NCBI GenBank assembly: GCA_015523565.1
Contig: WAKA01000036.1
Coordinates: forward strand, 1-23,332
Direction of reading: 5' to 3'
DNA from: Candidatus Heimdallarchaeota archaeon
GTDB lineage: Archaea > Asgardarchaeota > Heimdallarchaeia > Heimdallarchaeales > Kariarchaeaceae
Length of the DNA: 23,332 nucleotides
The notes under the pieces are model-generated. The model was not told the DNA's origin, searched no databases, and was given only the letters and a program-made list of their open reading frames with translations. The position numbers and the translations under genes are program-made. Below, piece by piece: positions 331-22,083 of this stretch. Each line of letters begins with the position of its first letter. Within the stretch, counting starts at the first letter, position 1.

Positions 331-491
331 TTGATTCAACTCATTTTGCATGTTGTGTATTGAATGTTGTATGGCCCTGCTTGTTCTGTTGTGGTTGTAG
401 TTGCTGCTTTGGTCGATGTCCCTCCTTATTTTCCAAAAGGACCGTATTATCTTATGTCTCCCAAGCAAAGGTGCATAGGGCATATGCAAGT

Positions 492-686
492 GGGATGCAA
501 TAGGATAATGCTGGGATGCAATGGTGCTGTGCAAGAGAGATGCAATAGTGCATGTGCAAGAGTGATGCAATGGTGCATGTGCAAGAGGGATGCAATAGTG
601 CATGTGCAAGAGGGATGCAATAGTGCATGTGCAAGAGGGATGCAATGGTGCATATGCAGGTGGGATGCAATGGAGCATGTGCAAGG
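492..686. repeat. Tandem array of a 25-bp unit GGGATGCAATAGTGCATGTGCAAGA (~7 full copies plus a partial one)
   Basis: Copies start at 513, 537, 562, 587, 612, 637 and 662, with a partial copy at 492. Units are head-to-tail with no spacers, and each has three TGCA cores. Confidence 0.95.
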
Positions 687-1499: not shown

Positions 1500-2009
1500 A
1501 TGAAAATCATTGTCGGTTCAACCAATCCGGTCAAGGTCAGTGCAGTACAGGAAGCAGTGGCTCTCTTTGGTTTGCCTGCAAGTGTGAGGGGGGTGAGTGT
1601 TCCTTCAGGTGTCTCTCCCATGCCCTTGTCCCGGCAGGAGGTTCGCAAGGGAGCCAAGACGCGTGCGATCAACGCCCTTTCACATGGGGCAACTCTTGCC
1701 ATAGGCATGGAGGGGGGCATAGCTCCAATTGAAGGTCAATATTATCTGACGTCCAGTGTCTATGCATGTACCGCCTCTGATGGGGCATGGGGTGGGGAAA
1801 TTCTTGTTCGACTTCCAGAGGACTTGGTTTCCTTGGTTCTTGAAAAAGGGATGGAACTTGGAGATGTGATCGACCTGCAAACAGGGCTGGAGAATTCGAA
1901 ACAGGGGGGTGGTGCTGTTTCCTATCTCACAGGCGGTCGGCTTACGCGTCAGCAGGTTTTTCGTGACTCATGTGTCCAAGCCTTGGCTCCTTTGCTTCAG
2001 TCCATTTGA
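1500..2009 (+). CDS. yjjX: Non-canonical purine NTP phosphatase (inosine/xanthosine triphosphatase, YjjX family)
   Basis: Motifs MKIIVGSTNPVKV, SGVSPMP, GAKTRA, IGMEGG, ELGDVID, KQGGGAVSYLTGG and TRQ. The start was placed at ATG 1500, where family similarity begins. Confidence 0.92.
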   Translation: MKIIVGSTNPVKVSAVQEAVALFGLPASVRGVSVPSGVSPMPLSRQEVRKGAKTRAINALSHGATLAIGMEGGIAPIEGQYYLTSSVYACTASDGAWGGEILVRLPEDLVSLVLEKGMELGDVIDLQTGLENSKQGGGAVSYLTGGRLTRQQVFRDSCVQALAPLLQSI

Positions 2010-3662
2010 GATATACTGGAAATGGTACGCGATTTGAAGTCCGCTTTCAGTTGGACGGACAGCCCTTCTGTTCATTTGTCCCAAAATGGGAATCTTTACA
2101 AGGTGGCCTTTTTCTGTAAGGTCATCTATTGCATCTCTCAATCTTCTTTCACTGTTGGGGTATATGCGAACCAATTCAACGATAGGTATGGCCTGGTCTT
2201 GGCTATGCAGGACAATGTAATGCAGGACAAAGAGCTCGTCAAAGTTCATTTTCAGGACAATGTGGATGATGTTTTGATCTGGCTTGAAGGTTTTTGGGAG
2301 AATGTCACCTTGTTGTGTCTCAGTTGTTTCTTTTCCCTTTTCCGGTTTTTCCGTGGGTTTTTCTTCCTGTATCTCAGTTGTATCATTTTCCCCTTCTGGT
2401 TTTTCCGTGGGTTTTTCTTGCTGCGTCTCAGTTGTATCATTTTCCTGTTTGTTTTCTTCTTTCAATGTGTCTGGGGTGTCCTTGGTGTCTGTCCATTCTT
2501 TTGTACTTATGGCTTCCTGTAGCGGTTCATTCGGCAGTTTGCTCTTTTGTTCTGTTTCAAGTATCTCTTGTTTGCCGGTTTCATTCTCCATGTGTTTGTG
2601 TTCAGTTTGTTGCATTATCACATCAATTATCTGCTGGATGGGTTGTCCCTTGAACAATCTCATTTCCTGTGCCAGGCTTCTTTCCTCAATCTTTGCAGAC
2701 TTCAAGTCTGCGAAGCTTAGGGAAAGTGGGACAATCCAGGTCACTGCAATGGCAATGGGGTTGGTAAGCATGTTGTTGTCCGTTTCAAGATATCGGAAGA
2801 GGATTGCAGTGAAGGTGACAATTGCCCCAAATATGGTCATTGTCTTAAGCAATTTCATTCTTTTTATGGTCTCGAATTGATTTCTCCTGTAGGATACAAT
2901 ATCCTGAATGGGTTCCTGTATGGATTGCGGTTGATGCTTGAAGTCGAGCTCATGGATGAAGATGTTGAAGAGGGCGAATATTACGGTTGGAATGGTCATG
3001 ACTAGTGTATAGTCGATCATTTGGATCTTGCCGTTGGAAAAGGAGTAAGGAAGGGTGAAAAGGACGAGCCAAACCAGGTTTGCAAGATATAACCATTCCA
3101 ATTCCTTCCATGCCTCTTTCTCTGCCGCTGTTTTTTTTTCCTTGTACCAGAAGATAGACCAGAAGACGAGAAGCAGTCCTATGGAAAAATTTTGGGAGAG
3201 TATTGATGCATAGGCAAAAAGGGCGAATATGGTCCATCCCCATGGACCGAACGAGAATAGGGATCCATAATTGTTGTCGTCCATCGGTGTTCCCATGACC
3301 AATTTTGGGTTTTGGGTAAACTTGCCCCAATCGGACAAGGCTACCAGGCCATAGAATATGGGGGTTCCAACAATGCTGATCCAGAGCAAGACTTTCCAGA
3401 TTTTGAATATTTTGTCTTTGTGTTCATTGTCCATTAGGGAGAAGAATTGTTCATTCAGGAAATCATAAGCCAATATCGTTGCATGATAGGTTGAAAGGAT
3501 GATGGCTCCATGCAGGCAAAGGAAAAGATAGCTGAACCAATCCCATCTGAAATCCGGTTCATAGATAAGGATTGCTGGAATGCCAAGGGGAATGATGGCA
3601 ATTGTTGCAATCCAGACACTGAGTGTAAGTTTTTTCCTGAGGCTTTTATCTCCCAAAAACAT
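1968..3662 (-). CDS. Membrane-tethered putative transcription regulator: ~8 TM N-terminal sensor, acidic repeat linker, C-terminal MarR-like winged HTH (564 aa)
   Basis: Hydrophobic helices span residues ~12-320, followed by an E/K/T/Q-rich disordered linker. The C-terminal 'IPIVELVRIYPNSERRLRDAIDDLTEKGHLVKIPILGQMNRRAVRPTESG' fits the wHTH pattern (L..kG.v.r......d.R.v.lT..G). Confidence 0.75.
   Translation of the reverse strand: MFLGDKSLRKKLTLSVWIATIAIIPLGIPAILIYEPDFRWDWFSYLFLCLHGAIILSTYHATILAYDFLNEQFFSLMDNEHKDKIFKIWKVLLWISIVGTPIFYGLVALSDWGKFTQNPKLVMGTPMDDNNYGSLFSFGPWGWTIFALFAYASILSQNFSIGLLLVFWSIFWYKEKKTAAEKEAWKELEWLYLANLVWLVLFTLPYSFSNGKIQMIDYTLVMTIPTVIFALFNIFIHELDFKHQPQSIQEPIQDIVSYRRNQFETIKRMKLLKTMTIFGAIVTFTAILFRYLETDNNMLTNPIAIAVTWIVPLSLSFADLKSAKIEERSLAQEMRLFKGQPIQQIIDVIMQQTEHKHMENETGKQEILETEQKSKLPNEPLQEAISTKEWTDTKDTPDTLKEENKQENDTTETQQEKPTEKPEGENDTTEIQEEKPTEKPEKGKETTETQQGDILPKTFKPDQNIIHIVLKMNFDELFVLHYIVLHSQDQAIPIVELVRIYPNSERRLRDAIDDLTEKGHLVKIPILGQMNRRAVRPTESGLQIAYHFQYISNGLKQRSQGLDT
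2311..2445 (-). repeat. Intragenic 54-bp (18-aa) tandem repeat, ~2.5 copies (ENDTTExQxEKPTEKPEG)
   Basis: Near-identical blocks at 2344-2391 and 2398-2445, with a partial third copy at ~2311-2337. The repeat is in frame. Confidence 0.9.
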
Positions 3663-3817
3663 CCATAATATTCTTGATTTTTATCCAATAAATACTTATT
3701 TTATACGGTTCAAAATCATGCACTTATATTTCTTTTCCCAAGGGTTTCCCATTTGCTGGTTTTTGCCCCTCCTTATTTATTGGCAAGGGGAATCTTTGAT
3801 TAGAGCAAAAACAGCTC

Positions 3818-3823
3818 GGAGGT
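3818..3823 (+). promoter_or_regulatory. Shine-Dalgarno GGAGGT for the small peptide ORF
   Basis: GGAGGT lies 9 nt upstream of the in-frame ATG at 3833 and abuts the ATG at 3824. Confidence 0.75.
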
Positions 3824-3994
3824 ATGAAAAAAATGAAACTCATGATGAAGAAACTGATGATCGCACTACTACCCTTTGTGATTGGAACAAGCATTGCCGC
3901 GGCAAGTGCCGCAGGAACCGTTTGTGACTTCTTTGGCGGCGGCGCATTTGGTTGCATAAGAACCGACGGTACCGCACCTGGTGGTGGCGCATAA
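3824..3994 (+). CDS. Small secreted Gly-rich, two-Cys peptide precursor (56 aa; 53 aa if it starts at 3833), missing from the ORF track
   Basis: Manual translation: MKKMKLMMKKLMIALLPFVIGTSIAAASAAGTVCDFFGGGAFGCIRTDGTAPGGGA*. It has a basic N-region, a hydrophobic core, an A-S-A signal peptidase site and a strong SD. The stop is TAA at 3992-3994. Confidence 0.85.
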   Translation: MKKMKLMMKKLMIALLPFVIGTSIAAASAAGTVCDFFGGGAFGCIRTDGTAPGGGA

Positions 3995-4011
3995 AGCAAC
4001 TCTAATTCTTG

Positions 4012-4218
4012 AAGTCCAATGTACTCAAACTCAATATTTTCAAAGTCCAATGTACTCAAACTCAATAACTTCAAGTCCAATGTACTCAAACTCAATATCT
4101 TCAAAGTCCAATGTACTCAAACTCAATAACTTCAAGTCCAATGTGCTCAGGCTCAATATCTTCAAGTCCAATGTGCTCAGGCTCAATATTTTCAAGATCC
4201 AATGTGCTCAAACTCAAA
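4012..4218. repeat. Tandem array of a 30/31-bp unit AAGTCCAATGTACTCAAACTCAATA(T/A)CTTC(A), 7 copies (last partial)
   Basis: Copies start at 4012, 4043, 4073, 4104, 4134, 4164 and 4194. There are no spacers. The 31-bp units break any reading frame. Confidence 0.95.
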
Positions 4219-14195: not shown

Positions 14196-14278
14196 GCGTG
14201 TATAATGTTTTCCGTTTATTTTTGCCTTTTGCTTCTTGAATGATTTCTAACTTTTTAAAGTCAATATATCCGAAAAGC

Positions 14279-14992
14279 ATGATGAAAAAAGGAATTGCCA
14301 TCTTGTTAATGGGGATTGTCTTTATCACCCTAATCCCACAATCATCTGCCTATAACATCAAACTGACCTACCTCGACCTAAGTGGAAATACCCATTCATT
14401 CGCTGAATTCGAGGGAAAATGGCTCTTTGTTGAAGTTTTCAGGCATGATTGCCCGCACTGCATCAATCAACACCCTGATTTGCAACAGCTTTACGACTTG
14501 AGAGTTGATGTGAACAACAGCAAAATGGAAATGCTTTCCTTGGCAGTATCTTCTGACACTGTGGAAGAAATCCAAACCTTCCTGAACGACCACCCGACCC
14601 CTTGGAATATCGGTCGGGATCCTCAAAACTCCTTTTCAAACACATATGGCATCACAGGCACTCCCACCATGATCCTTTTCGATACGAAAGGCAATGCCGC
14701 TAAATCATGGGTTGGTGAAACTCCCCTGTCAACATTACTCACTGACATTGACCCATTCCTCTCAGGGGAAAAATCAGCTACAATTACTGACCTTAAAGCA
14801 GTTGGAAACGCTCCCTCAAGCGGACAAAGCCTTATTGGATCCATTGTCGGCAATCCAATCGCCCAAGCGGGATTTCTCATCTCCTTGTTCCTTCTGGTCT
14901 ATTTCAAGCTTACATCACCATCTCCAGACGCAACGAAAAAAAGCCCAAAGAAAGAAACTAACCTGGATAGCCATCAATCAGCAAAGAAGTGA
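14279..14992 (+). CDS. TlpA/ResA-like extracytoplasmic thioredoxin-fold disulfide oxidoreductase with a C-terminal TM (237 aa)
   Basis: Signal peptide MMKKGIAILL...SSA, then DLSGNTHSFAEFEGK, CPHC and YGITGTPTMILFD, then a C-terminal hydrophobic helix. Confidence 0.9.
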   Translation: MMKKGIAILLMGIVFITLIPQSSAYNIKLTYLDLSGNTHSFAEFEGKWLFVEVFRHDCPHCINQHPDLQQLYDLRVDVNNSKMEMLSLAVSSDTVEEIQTFLNDHPTPWNIGRDPQNSFSNTYGITGTPTMILFDTKGNAAKSWVGETPLSTLLTDIDPFLSGEKSATITDLKAVGNAPSSGQSLIGSIVGNPIAQAGFLISLFLLVYFKLTSPSPDATKKSPKKETNLDSHQSAKK

Positions 14993-15462
14993 TAGGCATG
15001 AAAAACAAGACCATTCAAGCCATACTCTTTATCGCATCAATCGCAGGAATAATGGATACCCTTTTCCTGATTGACAGTTATTACAATGACCCCGCCGCCT
15101 GCTCCACCCCGTTTTTGCAATCAATTTTCGGTATCCCTGTTGATTGCGGGGAAGTTACCACCTCCCAATATTCCAAGGTGTTTTCCATCCCCCTTGCTTT
15201 CTATGGACTGGTCTTTTACCTCTCACTCTTCCTTATTCTGTATTTTGAAGACAGGCTAACCCCCCTCCTCAAAGACAAACCACTTGATTATGATTTCCTT
15301 CTTTTGGCATTTGGAATTACAGGTTTTCTTGTCTCCTCGATTCTCTTGTATATACAAGTGGGACTGATCGGCAAGGTCTGTCTTTATTGCCTTTTGTCGC
15401 TGGTCTCAAGCTATACCGTCTTAGGAACAACCTTTGTGAACCTCAAATTGTCAAAAAAATGA
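14989..15462 (+). CDS. Vitamin K epoxide reductase (VKOR) family disulfide-bond formation protein (154-157 aa)
   Basis: Loop cysteines AAC...VDCGEVTTSQYSKVFSIPLAFYG and the active-site CLYC. It is coupled to the upstream thioredoxin gene. Confidence 0.92.
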   Translation: MIGMKNKTIQAILFIASIAGIMDTLFLIDSYYNDPAACSTPFLQSIFGIPVDCGEVTTSQYSKVFSIPLAFYGLVFYLSLFLILYFEDRLTPLLKDKPLDYDFLLLAFGITGFLVSSILLYIQVGLIGKVCLYCLLSLVSSYTVLGTTFVNLKLSKK

Positions 15463-15540: not shown

Positions 15541-16686
15541 TTGGCTACGTATCTTGAAATTTTCCTTGCTATGCTCAATGGCATTATTGTCCTCTCATAT
15601 ATCGGATTCAATATCCATCAGGTAATCTTACGCAAGGATTGGATCTCCATTGAAATCCTTTTCACCTCCACCCTCTACTTTTTTTCCATCATTGTAAACT
15701 TCTTATTGTTTGACCTTTTCTTTCTCCAGCCTCAGACCGCTCAGATTGTGTCCATGTTAGGGGACATTTCTGGCGCTCTTACGCTGGTATTTCTGCTCTT
15801 CTTTTTTGATAGACGCACCTATTCACATAGAATTGGCTATTCCGCTAAACTTGCCTATATGTTCCTTACCATTTGCATCTCCTTTCTTATAATGGCAGTT
15901 GCAACCAAGGATTTTTTCATCGTAGGTTCCCTTGTCCAAGAAAATAGGATTGTTCTTCATCGTCATCTCCTATTCAGGATATTTCTAGGAGCAGGTGCCG
16001 CTTTTTTCATTTATTCATTCACCTCCATGCTTGATTTCATTCATTTGGGAAAACCAAGTTGGTTTGTCATTGAACCTAAAAGGCAAATGTACCTGCTTTT
16101 CATTGCCTTGATCATTTCCCAAGGGCTCTTCTCCTTGATTGGGGGATCTCAAGAGTTCTTCCTCATTGCCGAAATCATCAATTCCATTGTCTATATTCTT
16201 GTGGCATCTCAAATCCTGCTCATCCCCAATTTCATTTACCTGAAACAACAGAATATACGTATCCTTTTCAACCAAGGCGAATTCGGATGGGGCATATATA
16301 GGCTAATCAATAACTTGCCAACAAAACAAGTGTTTTCACAGCAATTCCTTGACAACAATGGAATGGATCCAACTTTCGAGATTGGTCTTGTTTCTGCCAC
16401 AATGACTGGATTCCTTTGCATGAATGATTCATGTGGATCCATGATGCTGTTCTCAATTCCTAAATATTCCCAGATTATTGCAATCACAACATCATTCTTC
16501 CTCACTTCTGATAAGGAATGGAATGAATATCTCCTACAATTCTATATTCCTTATTCATACCTTGGCACCATCACCAAACTCGTTGATTTGCATCACATTG
16601 TTTACAAATGGCTAAACACCATCAAAGACATTGAAGATGACACCCTGTCAGAAAAACTAATGAAAATTATCATTAAATTTTGGTGA
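15541..16686 (+). CDS. 7-TM membrane protein with a C-terminal cytoplasmic domain (paralog 1, 381 aa)
   Basis: About 7 hydrophobic helices in the first ~230 aa. The soluble C-domain begins 'LFNQGEFGWGIYRL' and aligns by eye with the next gene. Confidence 0.7.
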   Translation: MATYLEIFLAMLNGIIVLSYIGFNIHQVILRKDWISIEILFTSTLYFFSIIVNFLLFDLFFLQPQTAQIVSMLGDISGALTLVFLLFFFDRRTYSHRIGYSAKLAYMFLTICISFLIMAVATKDFFIVGSLVQENRIVLHRHLLFRIFLGAGAAFFIYSFTSMLDFIHLGKPSWFVIEPKRQMYLLFIALIISQGLFSLIGGSQEFFLIAEIINSIVYILVASQILLIPNFIYLKQQNIRILFNQGEFGWGIYRLINNLPTKQVFSQQFLDNNGMDPTFEIGLVSATMTGFLCMNDSCGSMMLFSIPKYSQIIAITTSFFLTSDKEWNEYLLQFYIPYSYLGTITKLVDLHHIVYKWLNTIKDIEDDTLSEKLMKIIIKFW

Positions 16687-16692
16687 CCTATC

Positions 16693-17832
16693 ATGCATGA
16701 TCTTCAATATCAAATTTTGGTTGCAGTTGCTTTTCTTCTGTCAATAATTATCAACGGCATATTTTTATGCATCACGTTCTCTTCCTTAAAAAAACGCCTT
16801 GTCCTCCTGCTGTTGGGAAGCTTTCTGACTACCATCTCAATCATAATCCTTGCCTTTTACTCAATGCAATCCTCCCCTGTGGAAAATGTTCGATTGATCT
16901 CTTTTGCAGGGGAATTGGTCGTTATTGCCCTCTTGATCCTTATTTTCCATCTTCCCGATTATTCTTCCTTTCAACGGATTTTGGAAAGGATTGCCCTCCT
17001 CAGCTCATCGGTGCCACTTGCATTTTTGATGATTGGATCGTTCTATCCTGAACATATTGCATACTCTCCCTTATATTTGCCTGAAATGGTATTTTTTACT
17101 TTTATCCCAGTCCTTGTATCATTCCTTGTCATCATCCTTGCTTTTGTCAAATTGGTCTTATCCAATAAAAGTATCATAAAATCTCTCTCTCTCCCTGAAC
17201 ACGGACGTATCTTTGCAATAATCACTTTTATCATCTTCATTATGTCTTTCTTTGTTTTTTTCGACAACATTGACAATCATGATAAAATCAGCATTCTTGT
17301 CCTTTTCTACTCAGTTCTTACCAATATTTCATTTGTCTTGGCTGTTTTATATTACCCTCAACGTTTTCCATCTCGACGAATTCTAAACAATCTCATGAAA
17401 AACGGGGCAATTGGCTGGCTTATGTCCATTATGGACGATGATGGGCCTCGTTCCTTGGCTTGGTCGGAATCTTTCGTGGCATGCAATTCCATTGACCAAA
17501 CCGTCTTGGATCAAGTGACAGTCCATGTTATTTCCCTTATTGGGCTTGGAAAAGAGGATGAGAAATATGACAACCTTTCCAATTTTGTACTTACCCTGTC
17601 CCTCAAGGAACCAATGCTGATTTTGGTGTTTCCCTCAAATGCCTCCGCAGAATTTGAGGATGAACGTTTCCAAGGCAGTACTGTCGCAACACTGTCTATC
17701 TTTTTGCCTGCAAGACTTGCCTCTTCCTTGAACATTCACGCCATTGAACTTCCCCACTTCAAAATTGAAAGTATTGGGCATGCCGATATTGAACAAACTG
17801 TAATCGATATCCTGTCTGAAATCTATGCATAA
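16693..17832 (+). CDS. 7-TM membrane protein with a C-terminal longin/uDENN-like domain (paralog 2, 379 aa)
   Basis: About 7 TM, then 'LMKNGAIGWLMSIMDDDGPRSLAWS...DERFQGSTVATLSIFLP'. The beta-strand-D..GP-beta-strand start is typical of uDENN/longin-like folds. Confidence 0.65.
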   Translation: MHDLQYQILVAVAFLLSIIINGIFLCITFSSLKKRLVLLLLGSFLTTISIIILAFYSMQSSPVENVRLISFAGELVVIALLILIFHLPDYSSFQRILERIALLSSSVPLAFLMIGSFYPEHIAYSPLYLPEMVFFTFIPVLVSFLVIILAFVKLVLSNKSIIKSLSLPEHGRIFAIITFIIFIMSFFVFFDNIDNHDKISILVLFYSVLTNISFVLAVLYYPQRFPSRRILNNLMKNGAIGWLMSIMDDDGPRSLAWSESFVACNSIDQTVLDQVTVHVISLIGLGKEDEKYDNLSNFVLTLSLKEPMLILVFPSNASAEFEDERFQGSTVATLSIFLPARLASSLNIHAIELPHFKIESIGHADIEQTVIDILSEIYA

Positions 17833-20592: not shown

Positions 20593-22083
20593 ATGGATTC
20601 ACTTGAGGACGCCATCCTCAAAAAGCTCCACGTCAAGGAACTTACTGGTCTCCCCGAAGCAATCCAAAAATTCCAAGAACCTTACCGTTCCCTTCTGTTC
20701 AGTGCATACTATTACCAAACCGAAGACCATGAAAAAGCTGTTGGATATGCACAAGATGCCTTTGATATGGCTTTTGCCTCACAATCCCGCCAACAGATCA
20801 TCAGGGCAACATCCCGCCTTGCAGAATGCCTCATCAGAATCGGACGGCTTGAAAACGCCATTGACGTAATCGAAGCAAACTATCAGATATTCAAAAGTGC
20901 CAAGAACCTGACCCCATACGAACAAAAATGGATCGGATATGTACATTATCAATACGCCGTTGCCTTGGCCCAACTCTCAAATTTCGATAAGTCAATGCAA
21001 CAATTCAAGTTTGCACTGGAATATGGACAAAAAAACAACGACAATCATCTTGTGTCTTCCTCCTTCAATGGTCTTGCCATTGTCTCAGAATGGATCGGCA
21101 AGATGAAAAATGCAGAGACCTATTACAAGAAAAGCCTCCGCCATAAACCAAAAAACACAATTGAGTATGCAGTCACCCTCGGAAACTATGGTGCACTGCT
21201 CCTGGCACTCGGCAAGACTGAACAGGCAACAGCCACCTACAGAAAAGCCTTGGCAATCTTTGAGAGAAAAGGAACCGCTGAACAAAAGATTTTGATATAC
21301 CAACAATTGGCATCCATCGCAACCGACCATAACCAACCCACTCTCGCCCTCAACTACTGCAAAAAGATACTTGCCGCCGCAAAAACTGTAAACCTGCCAA
21401 ACGATATCGCCTACGCTTCATTTGCCATTGGGCTCATCAATGTCAACCTTGGCAACCTGCCAGATGCAGAAAAAGCCTTGCACGATTTTGAAAAAACCGT
21501 TCAAGAAAATACCCTCAAACACCTTCTTCCCTATCTTGACTTTCTGAAAATAAAACTGCTCCTGAAACAGAACAAGCATGAGGCACTGCCATTGCTGAGA
21601 AAAATGATCAGACAGGAAAACCAAATGTTCGCCCATAAGCACTCTGCCATTCAAACACTCCTCACCTCTTTCCTTCCCCTCGATAACCTCCCTGAAAAAG
21701 CCCACATAGTAAGAGAAATTGAAATGACGTTTAAAAAAATGCAGGATGGGGCTAATGAAACCGAGTCCCCGCATTTCTATGCATCTGTCCTCAAACTTCG
21801 AGCCCTCCTCTCAAAGATTTCCGGTGACCATGACAAGTTCCACTCACTCCTGTCTGAGGCAATCTCCATCGCAAAAAAACACCATTACCCTGAACTTGAA
21901 GCCGAACTGAAAAAAACACAAATGGATACCCCTCCACAAGAAATTGAAAAAAATGTTCTTGACATGCTCCTTTCCGAATCATTCCAAAGGGAAATGCATA
22001 AGTCATTGAACCTCCCCACAAACGAAGTAAATGAATTCTACGACCTGCTCAACAGCAAGTTCGGGCTGTTTTCAACATCCTGA
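20593..22083 (+). CDS. Tetratricopeptide-repeat (TPR) protein (496 aa)
   Basis: Repeated ~40-aa helical units such as 'SSSFNGLAIVSEWIGKMKNAETYYKKSL' and 'AVTLGNYGALLLALGKTEQATATYRKAL'. Confidence 0.88.
   Translation: MDSLEDAILKKLHVKELTGLPEAIQKFQEPYRSLLFSAYYYQTEDHEKAVGYAQDAFDMAFASQSRQQIIRATSRLAECLIRIGRLENAIDVIEANYQIFKSAKNLTPYEQKWIGYVHYQYAVALAQLSNFDKSMQQFKFALEYGQKNNDNHLVSSSFNGLAIVSEWIGKMKNAETYYKKSLRHKPKNTIEYAVTLGNYGALLLALGKTEQATATYRKALAIFERKGTAEQKILIYQQLASIATDHNQPTLALNYCKKILAAAKTVNLPNDIAYASFAIGLINVNLGNLPDAEKALHDFEKTVQENTLKHLLPYLDFLKIKLLLKQNKHEALPLLRKMIRQENQMFAHKHSAIQTLLTSFLPLDNLPEKAHIVREIEMTFKKMQDGANETESPHFYASVLKLRALLSKISGDHDKFHSLLSEAISIAKKHHYPELEAELKKTQMDTPPQEIEKNVLDMLLSESFQREMHKSLNLPTNEVNEFYDLLNSKFGLFSTS

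Follow-up and report, generated by a model that had tools for sequence, protein, structure and literature searches.

A small family of predicted Sec-exported, two-cysteine peptides in Heimdall-group Asgard archaea

Can an unannotated frame of little more than fifty codons, lying between two tandem-repeat arrays in the genome of an Asgard archaeon, be a gene, and if it is what would its product do? The frame lies in a contig of a Candidatus Heimdallarchaeota archaeon, all 23,332 nt of which were analysed and are referred to here as the window. The assembly to which the window belongs (3.57 Mb in 233 contigs) is about 90% complete. Among its genes is one for a true actin, which scores 455 bits against Pfam Actin, a family that had no match in 14 control prokaryotes; this fits the placement of the genome in the Heimdall group of the Asgard archaea.

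The open frame at 3824-3994 of the forward strand would yield the 56-aa product quoted in the earlier note on this DNA, which had described a hidden small ORF with a perfect GGAGGT Shine-Dalgarno sequence. The Shine-Dalgarno sequence is indeed present, however as it directly abuts ATG 3824 (spacer 0) and lies 9 nt from an in-frame ATG at 3833 it would serve the second of these codons and not the first. The gene is therefore most likely 3833-3994, encoding 53 residues. This start agrees with that of the relatives described below, as the closest paralogs and one ortholog begin M-K-[LI]-x-x-K-K and a GGAGG stands 6-7 nt 5' of the start in two of the paralogs (those on C193 and G002_C18), and it agrees with the public database, in which the gene call for an identical sequence is the 53-aa form. 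The features of the locus and of the rest of the window are collected in Table 1.

Table 1. Coordinates of features in the window, with the basis of each assignment or a remark.
Feature	Position	Strand	Basis or remark
25-bp tandem array, 8.6 copies	475-685		Unique to this contig within the genome
564-aa multi-pass membrane protein with acidic repeat linker	1968-3662	-	Divergent from the peptide gene; C-terminus read earlier as winged helix
Two TTTCCCA boxes ~11 nt apart, then TTTGCTGGTTTTT (putative regulatory element)	3733..3764	+	Alignment of upstream DNA
TATA-like box TTATTTATT (putative promoter)	3773..3781	+	Sequence only; about 52-60 nt before ATG 3833
Shine-Dalgarno GGAGGT	3818..3823	+	Sequence; GGAGG placement in C193 and G002_C18
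53-aa prepeptide CDS, including stop codon	3833..3994	+	Orthologs, paralogs, dN/dS, leader-only test, public gene call
Leader, residues 1-26: n-region, hydrophobic core with invariant Pro14, A-S-A c-region	3833..3910	+	Layout, AlphaFold2 helix, leader-only test
Predicted mature 27-aa peptide with Cys31, Cys41 and Gly/Pro tail	3911..3991	+	Ortholog conservation
30/31-bp tandem array, ~7 copies, 61-bp higher-order unit	3998-4217		Starts just after the peptide stop
Exported CPHC thioredoxin-fold protein with N-terminal signal and C-terminal membrane anchor	14240..14992	+	Pfam Redoxin, AhpC-TSA, Thioredoxin_2
VKOR homolog, loop Cys pair plus CLYC	14989..15462	+	Pfam VKOR, 65.7 bits

Substrates of signal peptidase I have a charged n-region, a hydrophobic h-region and small residues at positions -3 and -1 (PMC6098224), and the window peptide, judged by this tripartite layout only, carries a class I signal peptide: an n-region of seven residues with three lysines (MKLMMKK), a hydrophobic core of 16 residues, LMIALLPFVIGTSIAA, and then A-S-A. 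The Sec-type leader of the earlier note is in this respect as it was described. The same layout is found in most of the secure relatives, in which the core is followed by small residues at -3/-1 (ASA, VSA, ASA and VMA), and the residues there are poor in G002_C18 and G002_C117; it also resembles the signal of the exported CPHC protein encoded in the same window.

Cleavage would be expected after A26, to give the 27-mer AGTVCDFFGGGAFGCIRTDGTAPGGGA, in which Cys31 (codon 3923-3925) and Cys41 (codon 3953-3955) are separated by the nine residues DFFGGGAFG and would be joined by a disulfide. The codons and their spacing confirm what had been claimed of this Phe/Gly loop and of the tail rich in Gly and Pro that follows Cys41, and the further claim that the product is too small for an enzyme is supported as well. 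The predicted mature peptide is neither cationic nor amphipathic. In an AlphaFold2 model made from the family alignment, residues 4-26 form a helix that ends at the proposed cleavage site and, at low confidence (pLDDT ~55), residues 29-32 and 40-43 form short strands, each with one of the two cysteines. Two other kinds of leader were considered and rejected: Tat export, as the n-region, which is Lys-only, lacks RR, and a lipoprotein, as the lipobox [LVI][ASTVI][GAS]C is absent and the cysteine of G-T-V-C comes five residues after A-S-A. That box is approached only by uncertain look-alikes in G006.

The small ORF is a real gene under purifying selection. An ortholog, P0008 (GCA_027071915.1, L056:1475-1627), has 84% nucleotide identity to it over 150 nt, and 13 of the 24 differences fall at third codon positions. 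By the method of Nei and Gojobori 13 of the changes are synonymous and 11 non-synonymous (Fisher p ~0.001), with a dN of 0.105 and a dS of 0.454, so that dN/dS is ~0.23, well below 1, and it is alike in the leader (0.27) and in the mature part (0.22). P0008 keeps the frame, both cysteines and most of the loop. A second ortholog, P0009, which is represented on four contigs from three sequencing runs, has 56% amino acid identity to the window peptide and retains the pattern A-G-T-x-C-x-F-[FL]-G-x-G...C-x-R-T-[DE]-G. Neither stops nor frameshifts were found in these two orthologs. The metagenome contig L030 (1,666 nt) differs from the window genome by a single mismatch, as it represents the same genome it adds no independent support. 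The bias towards third positions, the dN/dS of 0.23 and the retrieval of paralogs by the leader alone place the ORF beyond chance.

With the window peptide as the query, paralogs were found on two other contigs of its own genome, C193 (E 8e-9) and C227 (E 1e-5), and profiles recruited further small ORFs both there and in the sister genomes G001, G002, G006 and G007. Such profiles contain Cys columns, which bias the Cys counts among their matches, therefore a leave-one-group-out test was used in which the leaders were cut before any Cys and were matched against all 78,922 stop-to-stop frames of the own genome. Nine lineages rank first in this test with E <=0.014, the window peptide having an E of 7.5e-9, and the leader motif of the family is KKLxIALxP. 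The nine lineages, which we refer to as secure, are the window peptide with its two orthologs; the own-genome copies on C193, on C227 and on C221, the last together with G001_C130 and P0005; and, one each, G002_C18, G002_C117, G002_C158, G002_C53 and G002_C106. The genome of the window peptide thus has three secure paralogs of it.

G001_C60 is borderline in the leader test (E 0.3) and has the upstream DNA element described below. The pair C161/G001_C32, G007_C87 and three copies in G006 fail the test and are look-alikes only, hence the profile searches overstate how large the family is. A leader-only profile built from the own-genome copies alone is too weak for most relatives. Searches of the tBLASTn type, a check proposed in the earlier note, came out as it had foreseen: the paralogs that they found share the leader, retain Cys pairs and differ in their loops. 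All of the paralogs are 40-71 aa in length.

The secure family was found in a single genus of Heimdall-group Asgard archaea, namely in the own genome, G001 and G002, and otherwise only on a few metagenome contigs. No member was found in G003 (93% complete), nor in 71 further genomes of the class. When 1.84 billion representative proteins were searched with a profile and with no length limit, eight matches of 42-71 aa were returned, two of which are the orthologs, and no long form of the peptide. When a database of 5.8 billion clusters was searched with the single sequence only the peptide itself was recovered, and an alignment query of the same database gave five proteins. A scan of JGI metagenome and GTDB genome contigs with the ortholog alignment produced pattern matches, none of which was confirmed, and nothing significant was found when 13 members were compared with Pfam and NCBIfam. 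The best of the look-alikes in the ESM Atlas scored 0.79, which is below lead level. A scan for small ORFs led by a Shine-Dalgarno sequence and combining a signal with two cysteines gave four matches, three of which are family members or the C161 look-alike and one an unrelated membrane protein; it follows that there is no larger hidden repertoire of such ORFs. The family is therefore small and previously uncatalogued, the kind of molecule is familiar, and what is new is its Asgard setting and the upstream element that several members share.

Paralogs share 58-73% of the residues of the leader and only 19-38% of those of the mature part, whereas between orthologs the mature part is about as well conserved as the leader, with 78% against 87% for one ortholog of the window peptide and 62% against 54% for the other, both cysteines being kept in each. 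That paralogs differ in this way and orthologs do not points to specific recognition of each peptide outside the cell. The predicted mature parts range from 14 to 33 aa across the family, and Phe, Trp, Tyr, Pro and Gly abound in their loops. Of the nine secure lineages seven (or eight of ten if G001_C60 is counted) have exactly two cysteines after the leader, 7-15 residues apart. Cys makes up 0.68% of the residues in the long frames of the own genome, and a comparable pair occurs in 7% of random control small frames, at which background seven of nine would have a chance of ~3e-7. Membership of the family does not require the Cys pair, as C227 and P0007, a near-identical relative in another assembly, have no Cys at all; G002_C106 has one. 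The mature part encoded at C227:9657-9803 is rich in Gly, Trp and Arg.

Some family members also share DNA upstream of their genes. When this DNA is aligned, an element consisting of two TTTCCCA boxes followed by GC[AT]G-GTTTT, just 5' of a TATA-like box, is common to the window gene, C193, C227, G002_C18, G001_C60 and the ortholog on L057; in the window it sits 69-100 nt before ATG 3833, and in the alignment of the window gene with C193, C227 and G002_C18 the conserved block precedes the start by about 75-88 nt. The paralogs have A/T-rich boxes in a corresponding position, and the TATA-like box is a putative promoter. A strict pattern of the element occurs three times in the 3.57 Mb of the genome, each time before a family member. 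A weight matrix finds seven sites that score above 25 bits, the maximum in a reversed-genome control being 22.4. The four additional sites precede a 429-aa exported protein without a Pfam family, hydrophobic ORFs of 58 and 42 aa, and, in one case, no clear gene; this last site possibly marks a decayed family member. Besides that of the window, sites in the own genome lie at C193:38991(-), C22:5059(+), C52:7097(-) and C60:15366(-). Neither the C221 subfamily nor the DNA upstream of the L056 ortholog has the element. We read it as the putative binding site of a regulator that would switch on a limited group of exported products; as unrelated genes are also preceded by it, the element may be a general promoter module.

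In keeping with stand-alone genes, no ORF of 80 aa or more is common to the 8 kb on either side of the five own-genome loci, and the two orthologs have other, unrelated neighbours. No neighbour recurs, and a modifying enzyme, immunity gene, transporter or receptor is thus not conserved beside these genes. Within the stretch L056:777-1627 the ATG of the ortholog overlaps, as ATGA, the stop of a PKD/DUF285 surface-protein gene, with which this copy seems to be co-transcribed. The ortholog on L057 is surrounded by a leucine-rich-repeat protein and proteins without assignment, with a radical-SAM gene 3.5 kb away. Three sister species representatives were searched and have no ortholog of the window gene, and in the closest species, G001, another gene lies beside the LigB ortholog where the peptide would be.

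The 564-aa membrane protein that is divergent from the peptide gene is the only receptor candidate adjacent to it; it has no Pfam family and is single-copy in the own genome. Three homologs of 430-452 aa are present in G001 and one in G007, none of them adjoining a family member, and none was found in G003 or in G002, which has five family members. A cassette of the peptide and this protein as its receptor is not supported by conservation, the 564-aa protein being missing beside the other paralogs and beside both orthologs, although it may hold for this one locus. The 30-bp array was rejected as part of any system, as it is unique to the locus and absent after both orthologs. The contig L030, from another assembly, breaks at the start of that array. 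Elsewhere in the window are two adjacent ORFs of ~380 aa without a Pfam family (15541-17832) and, at 20593-22083, a TPR protein of 496 aa whose TPR region is MalT-like.

The window also encodes proteins that may close the loop. The VKOR gene overlaps that of the CPHC protein by 4 nt, ~10 kb from the peptide gene, and in prokaryotes VKOR with a thioredoxin-like partner is an alternative to DsbB/DsbA for the formation of extracytoplasmic disulfides (PMC4555120). It is probable, from their sequences, that the two form such a pair in which VKOR re-oxidises its thioredoxin-fold partner, and the CPHC protein would then act in trans on secreted Cys pairs, including that of this peptide. VKOR is single-copy in the own genome; 9 of 11 genomes in the taxonomic family of the host encode it, and so do 26 of 31 in the neighbouring family, all peptide-bearing genomes included. 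Being so common in this order of Asgard archaea, it is a trait of the lineage and not a dedicated partner of the peptide. A homolog of the S26 type I signal peptidase is also present in the own genome.

How then might the peptide work? We propose that the gene is translated into the 53-aa prepeptide, that residues 1-26 take it to the Sec pathway, that after export signal peptidase I would cut behind A-S-A to release AGTVCDFFGGGAFGCIRTDGTAPGGGA, and that the CPHC protein and VKOR would oxidise Cys31 and Cys41 to give a small hairpin with a nine-residue Phe/Gly loop. The family would be one of stand-alone, genus-restricted genes that keep the leader and have a mature part specific to each paralog and conserved among its own orthologs. 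The peptides would be extracellular ligands, which we would guess to be cell-cell or self/non-self signals, and one subfamily may be co-switched through the shared TTTCCCA direct-repeat element 5' of its promoters. In this account export, the cleavage site, the disulfide and co-regulation are inferences, and the signalling role is a guess.

That the product is a cleaved, exported two-Cys peptide we consider probable. That a peptide of this kind acts as a signal rather than an antagonist we put at somewhat less than even odds, and the whole account, of a Sec-exported two-Cys peptide acting as an extracellular ligand, is put forward tentatively. We lean to ligands since there is no immunity gene, since selection among the orthologs is purifying and since a promoter element is shared. 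Peptide-binding TPR proteins could be candidates for the receptor. Against this account, C227 and G002_C106 lack the Cys pair and the element is limited to one subfamily. Moreover an exposed disulfide may not last in the anoxic or micro-oxic sediments that these archaea inhabit.

The exported two-Cys peptide could instead be a weapon, that is, an unmodified Sec-dependent archaeocin or bacteriocin-like peptide whose paralogs have diversified in an arms race, a strong rival account although one that we regard as unlikely. Toxin and bacteriocin families typically join a conserved export leader to strongly diverged mature parts, as is seen here, the family has hydrophobic loops with many Pro and aromatic residues, and the distribution is patchy and restricted to a lineage in which the genes change neighbourhoods. 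Nor are bacteriocin-like peptides implausible in Asgardarchaeota, as homologs of lactococcal bacteriocins have been reported there in a preprint, this peptide family not being among them (10.64898/2026.07.27.741052). However a weapon would sit uneasily with a peptide that is not cationic or amphipathic and matches no bacteriocin family in Pfam or NCBIfam, with the lack of a conserved adjacent immunity gene or transporter, and with orthologs under purifying and not diversifying selection.

It is distinctly unlikely that the leader stays uncut and that the product is a tiny single-pass membrane protein, N-terminus in and C-terminus out, which displays the Cys loop as, for example, an accessory subunit or a surface tag. 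Small membrane proteins abound and often escape annotation, the hydrophobic stretch spans 16-19 residues, the AlphaFold2 helix over residues 4-26 is continuous, and the poor -3/-1 residues of G002_C18 and G002_C117 would suit an anchor. In most of the secure members, however, small residues at -3/-1 come right after the core, the layout matches the signal of the exported CPHC protein, and a mature part that is conserved between orthologs yet variable between paralogs is a better fit to a released ligand.

A more elaborate form of the ligand account is an autoinducing circuit, in which disulfide-cyclised pheromones would be sensed by the 564-aa protein or by another receptor that binds the TTTCCCA repeats and acts at the peptide genes and at a few genes for exported and membrane proteins. 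We think this very unlikely; to our knowledge no peptide-based system of cell-cell signalling has been described in archaea so far, and if the circuit were true it would be the first such archaeal system, and in the closest prokaryotic relatives of eukaryotes.

The earlier note had also suggested a RiPP precursor. In such a precursor an N-terminal recognition leader would direct an enzyme encoded elsewhere to cross-link the cysteines by a thioether or similar bond. Many RiPP families do combine a conserved leader with a hypervariable core, and there is the radical-SAM gene 3.5 kb from the L057 ortholog. Its protein is, however, just Fer4_12 and a Radical_SAM core in a placement that does not recur, and no modifying enzyme, protease or transporter is conserved beside any paralog or ortholog. 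The leader is positively charged, hydrophobic and of the Sec type, and it gives no significant match to RiPP leaders (the best E values, 0.07-0.26, each fall on a single member). AgrB was not found in the about 90% complete genome. The suggestion is unsupported by these results and appears highly improbable. Finally, that so short and unannotated a frame, between repeat arrays and without an ortholog in the three sister species representatives, is an ORF by chance, or the 5' end of a former gene for a larger secreted protein that is now in decay, is hardly credible given a dN/dS of 0.23 and an intact frame in two orthologs, a conserved Shine-Dalgarno sequence and start context, paralogs that are all 40-71 aa, and 1.84 billion proteins that hold 42-71-aa relatives only and no long form.

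How archaea signal to their neighbours or fight them is poorly known, most of all for the Asgard archaea, which live in tight partnerships and are hard to culture. In a literature search no account of small, disulfide-closed archaeal peptides exported through Sec was found. The family provides molecules of 14-33 residues that can be synthesised, a candidate shared operator and an oxidative-folding pair, and with these in hand the hypothesis of signalling or antagonism becomes directly testable in enrichment cultures. Its reach is limited to one genus and a few metagenome contigs. It also illustrates how gene callers and family databases miss such genes, this one being unannotated, outside any Pfam or NCBIfam family and with eight relatives in 1.84 billion proteins.

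Amongst known systems, an AgrD of the Agr type was rejected as its processing protease AgrB (PF04647) was not found in the 90% complete genome and the leader is of the Sec type, where an AgrD has an amphipathic one. Closer in design are enterocin P and the pediocin-like class II bacteriocins (PF01721), which likewise have a small gene and an ordinary Sec signal instead of a double-glycine leader. With Sec-dependent class II bacteriocins the window peptide would also share a mature product of a few dozen residues that has one disulfide, a putative one here, and is otherwise unmodified. It differs from PF01721 in having no match to the profile, no YGNGV box and no adjacent immunity gene, in that the mature parts of its family are shorter (14-33 aa) and not cationic, and in its archaeal host; a pediocin-like or class II bacteriocin was rejected as none of 13 members has a match in Pfam or NCBIfam up to E = 1.

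The halocins C8, S8 and H4 of haloarchaea are, like the proposed product, made on the ribosomes of archaea and exported to work outside the cell, as peptides or as proteins. Larger precursors are cut to give the halocins, and C8 contains ten cysteines. The window peptide has no sequence match to them and no twin-arginine motif, whereas halocin H4 of haloarchaea is secreted through Tat (10.64898/2026.07.27.741052).

The Phe-Phe within the Cys loop and the Ala-Gly at the start of the predicted mature peptide recall the disulfide-loop hormones of vertebrates. In somatostatin-14 and urotensin II a signal peptide is followed by a short loop that is closed by one disulfide and contains Phe-Phe. There is no prohormone architecture in the window peptide, which is too short for a test of homology, and despite its Asgard host the likeness should be treated as a coincidence of shape and not as ancestry.

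In family design there is a likeness to the conopeptides of cone snails and to the secreted Cys-peptide families of animals and plants, which show the same multigene design with short loops rich in Pro and aromatic residues. Conopeptide superfamilies, for example the single-disulfide contryphans, conserve the signal and the Cys framework whilst the residues between the cysteines diverge. The archaeal genes differ from these in having no pro-region and no dibasic site, and in being prokaryotic genes with a Shine-Dalgarno sequence. The resemblance is one of analogy and not homology: a leader that is kept, joined to a short loop that varies from one paralog to the next.
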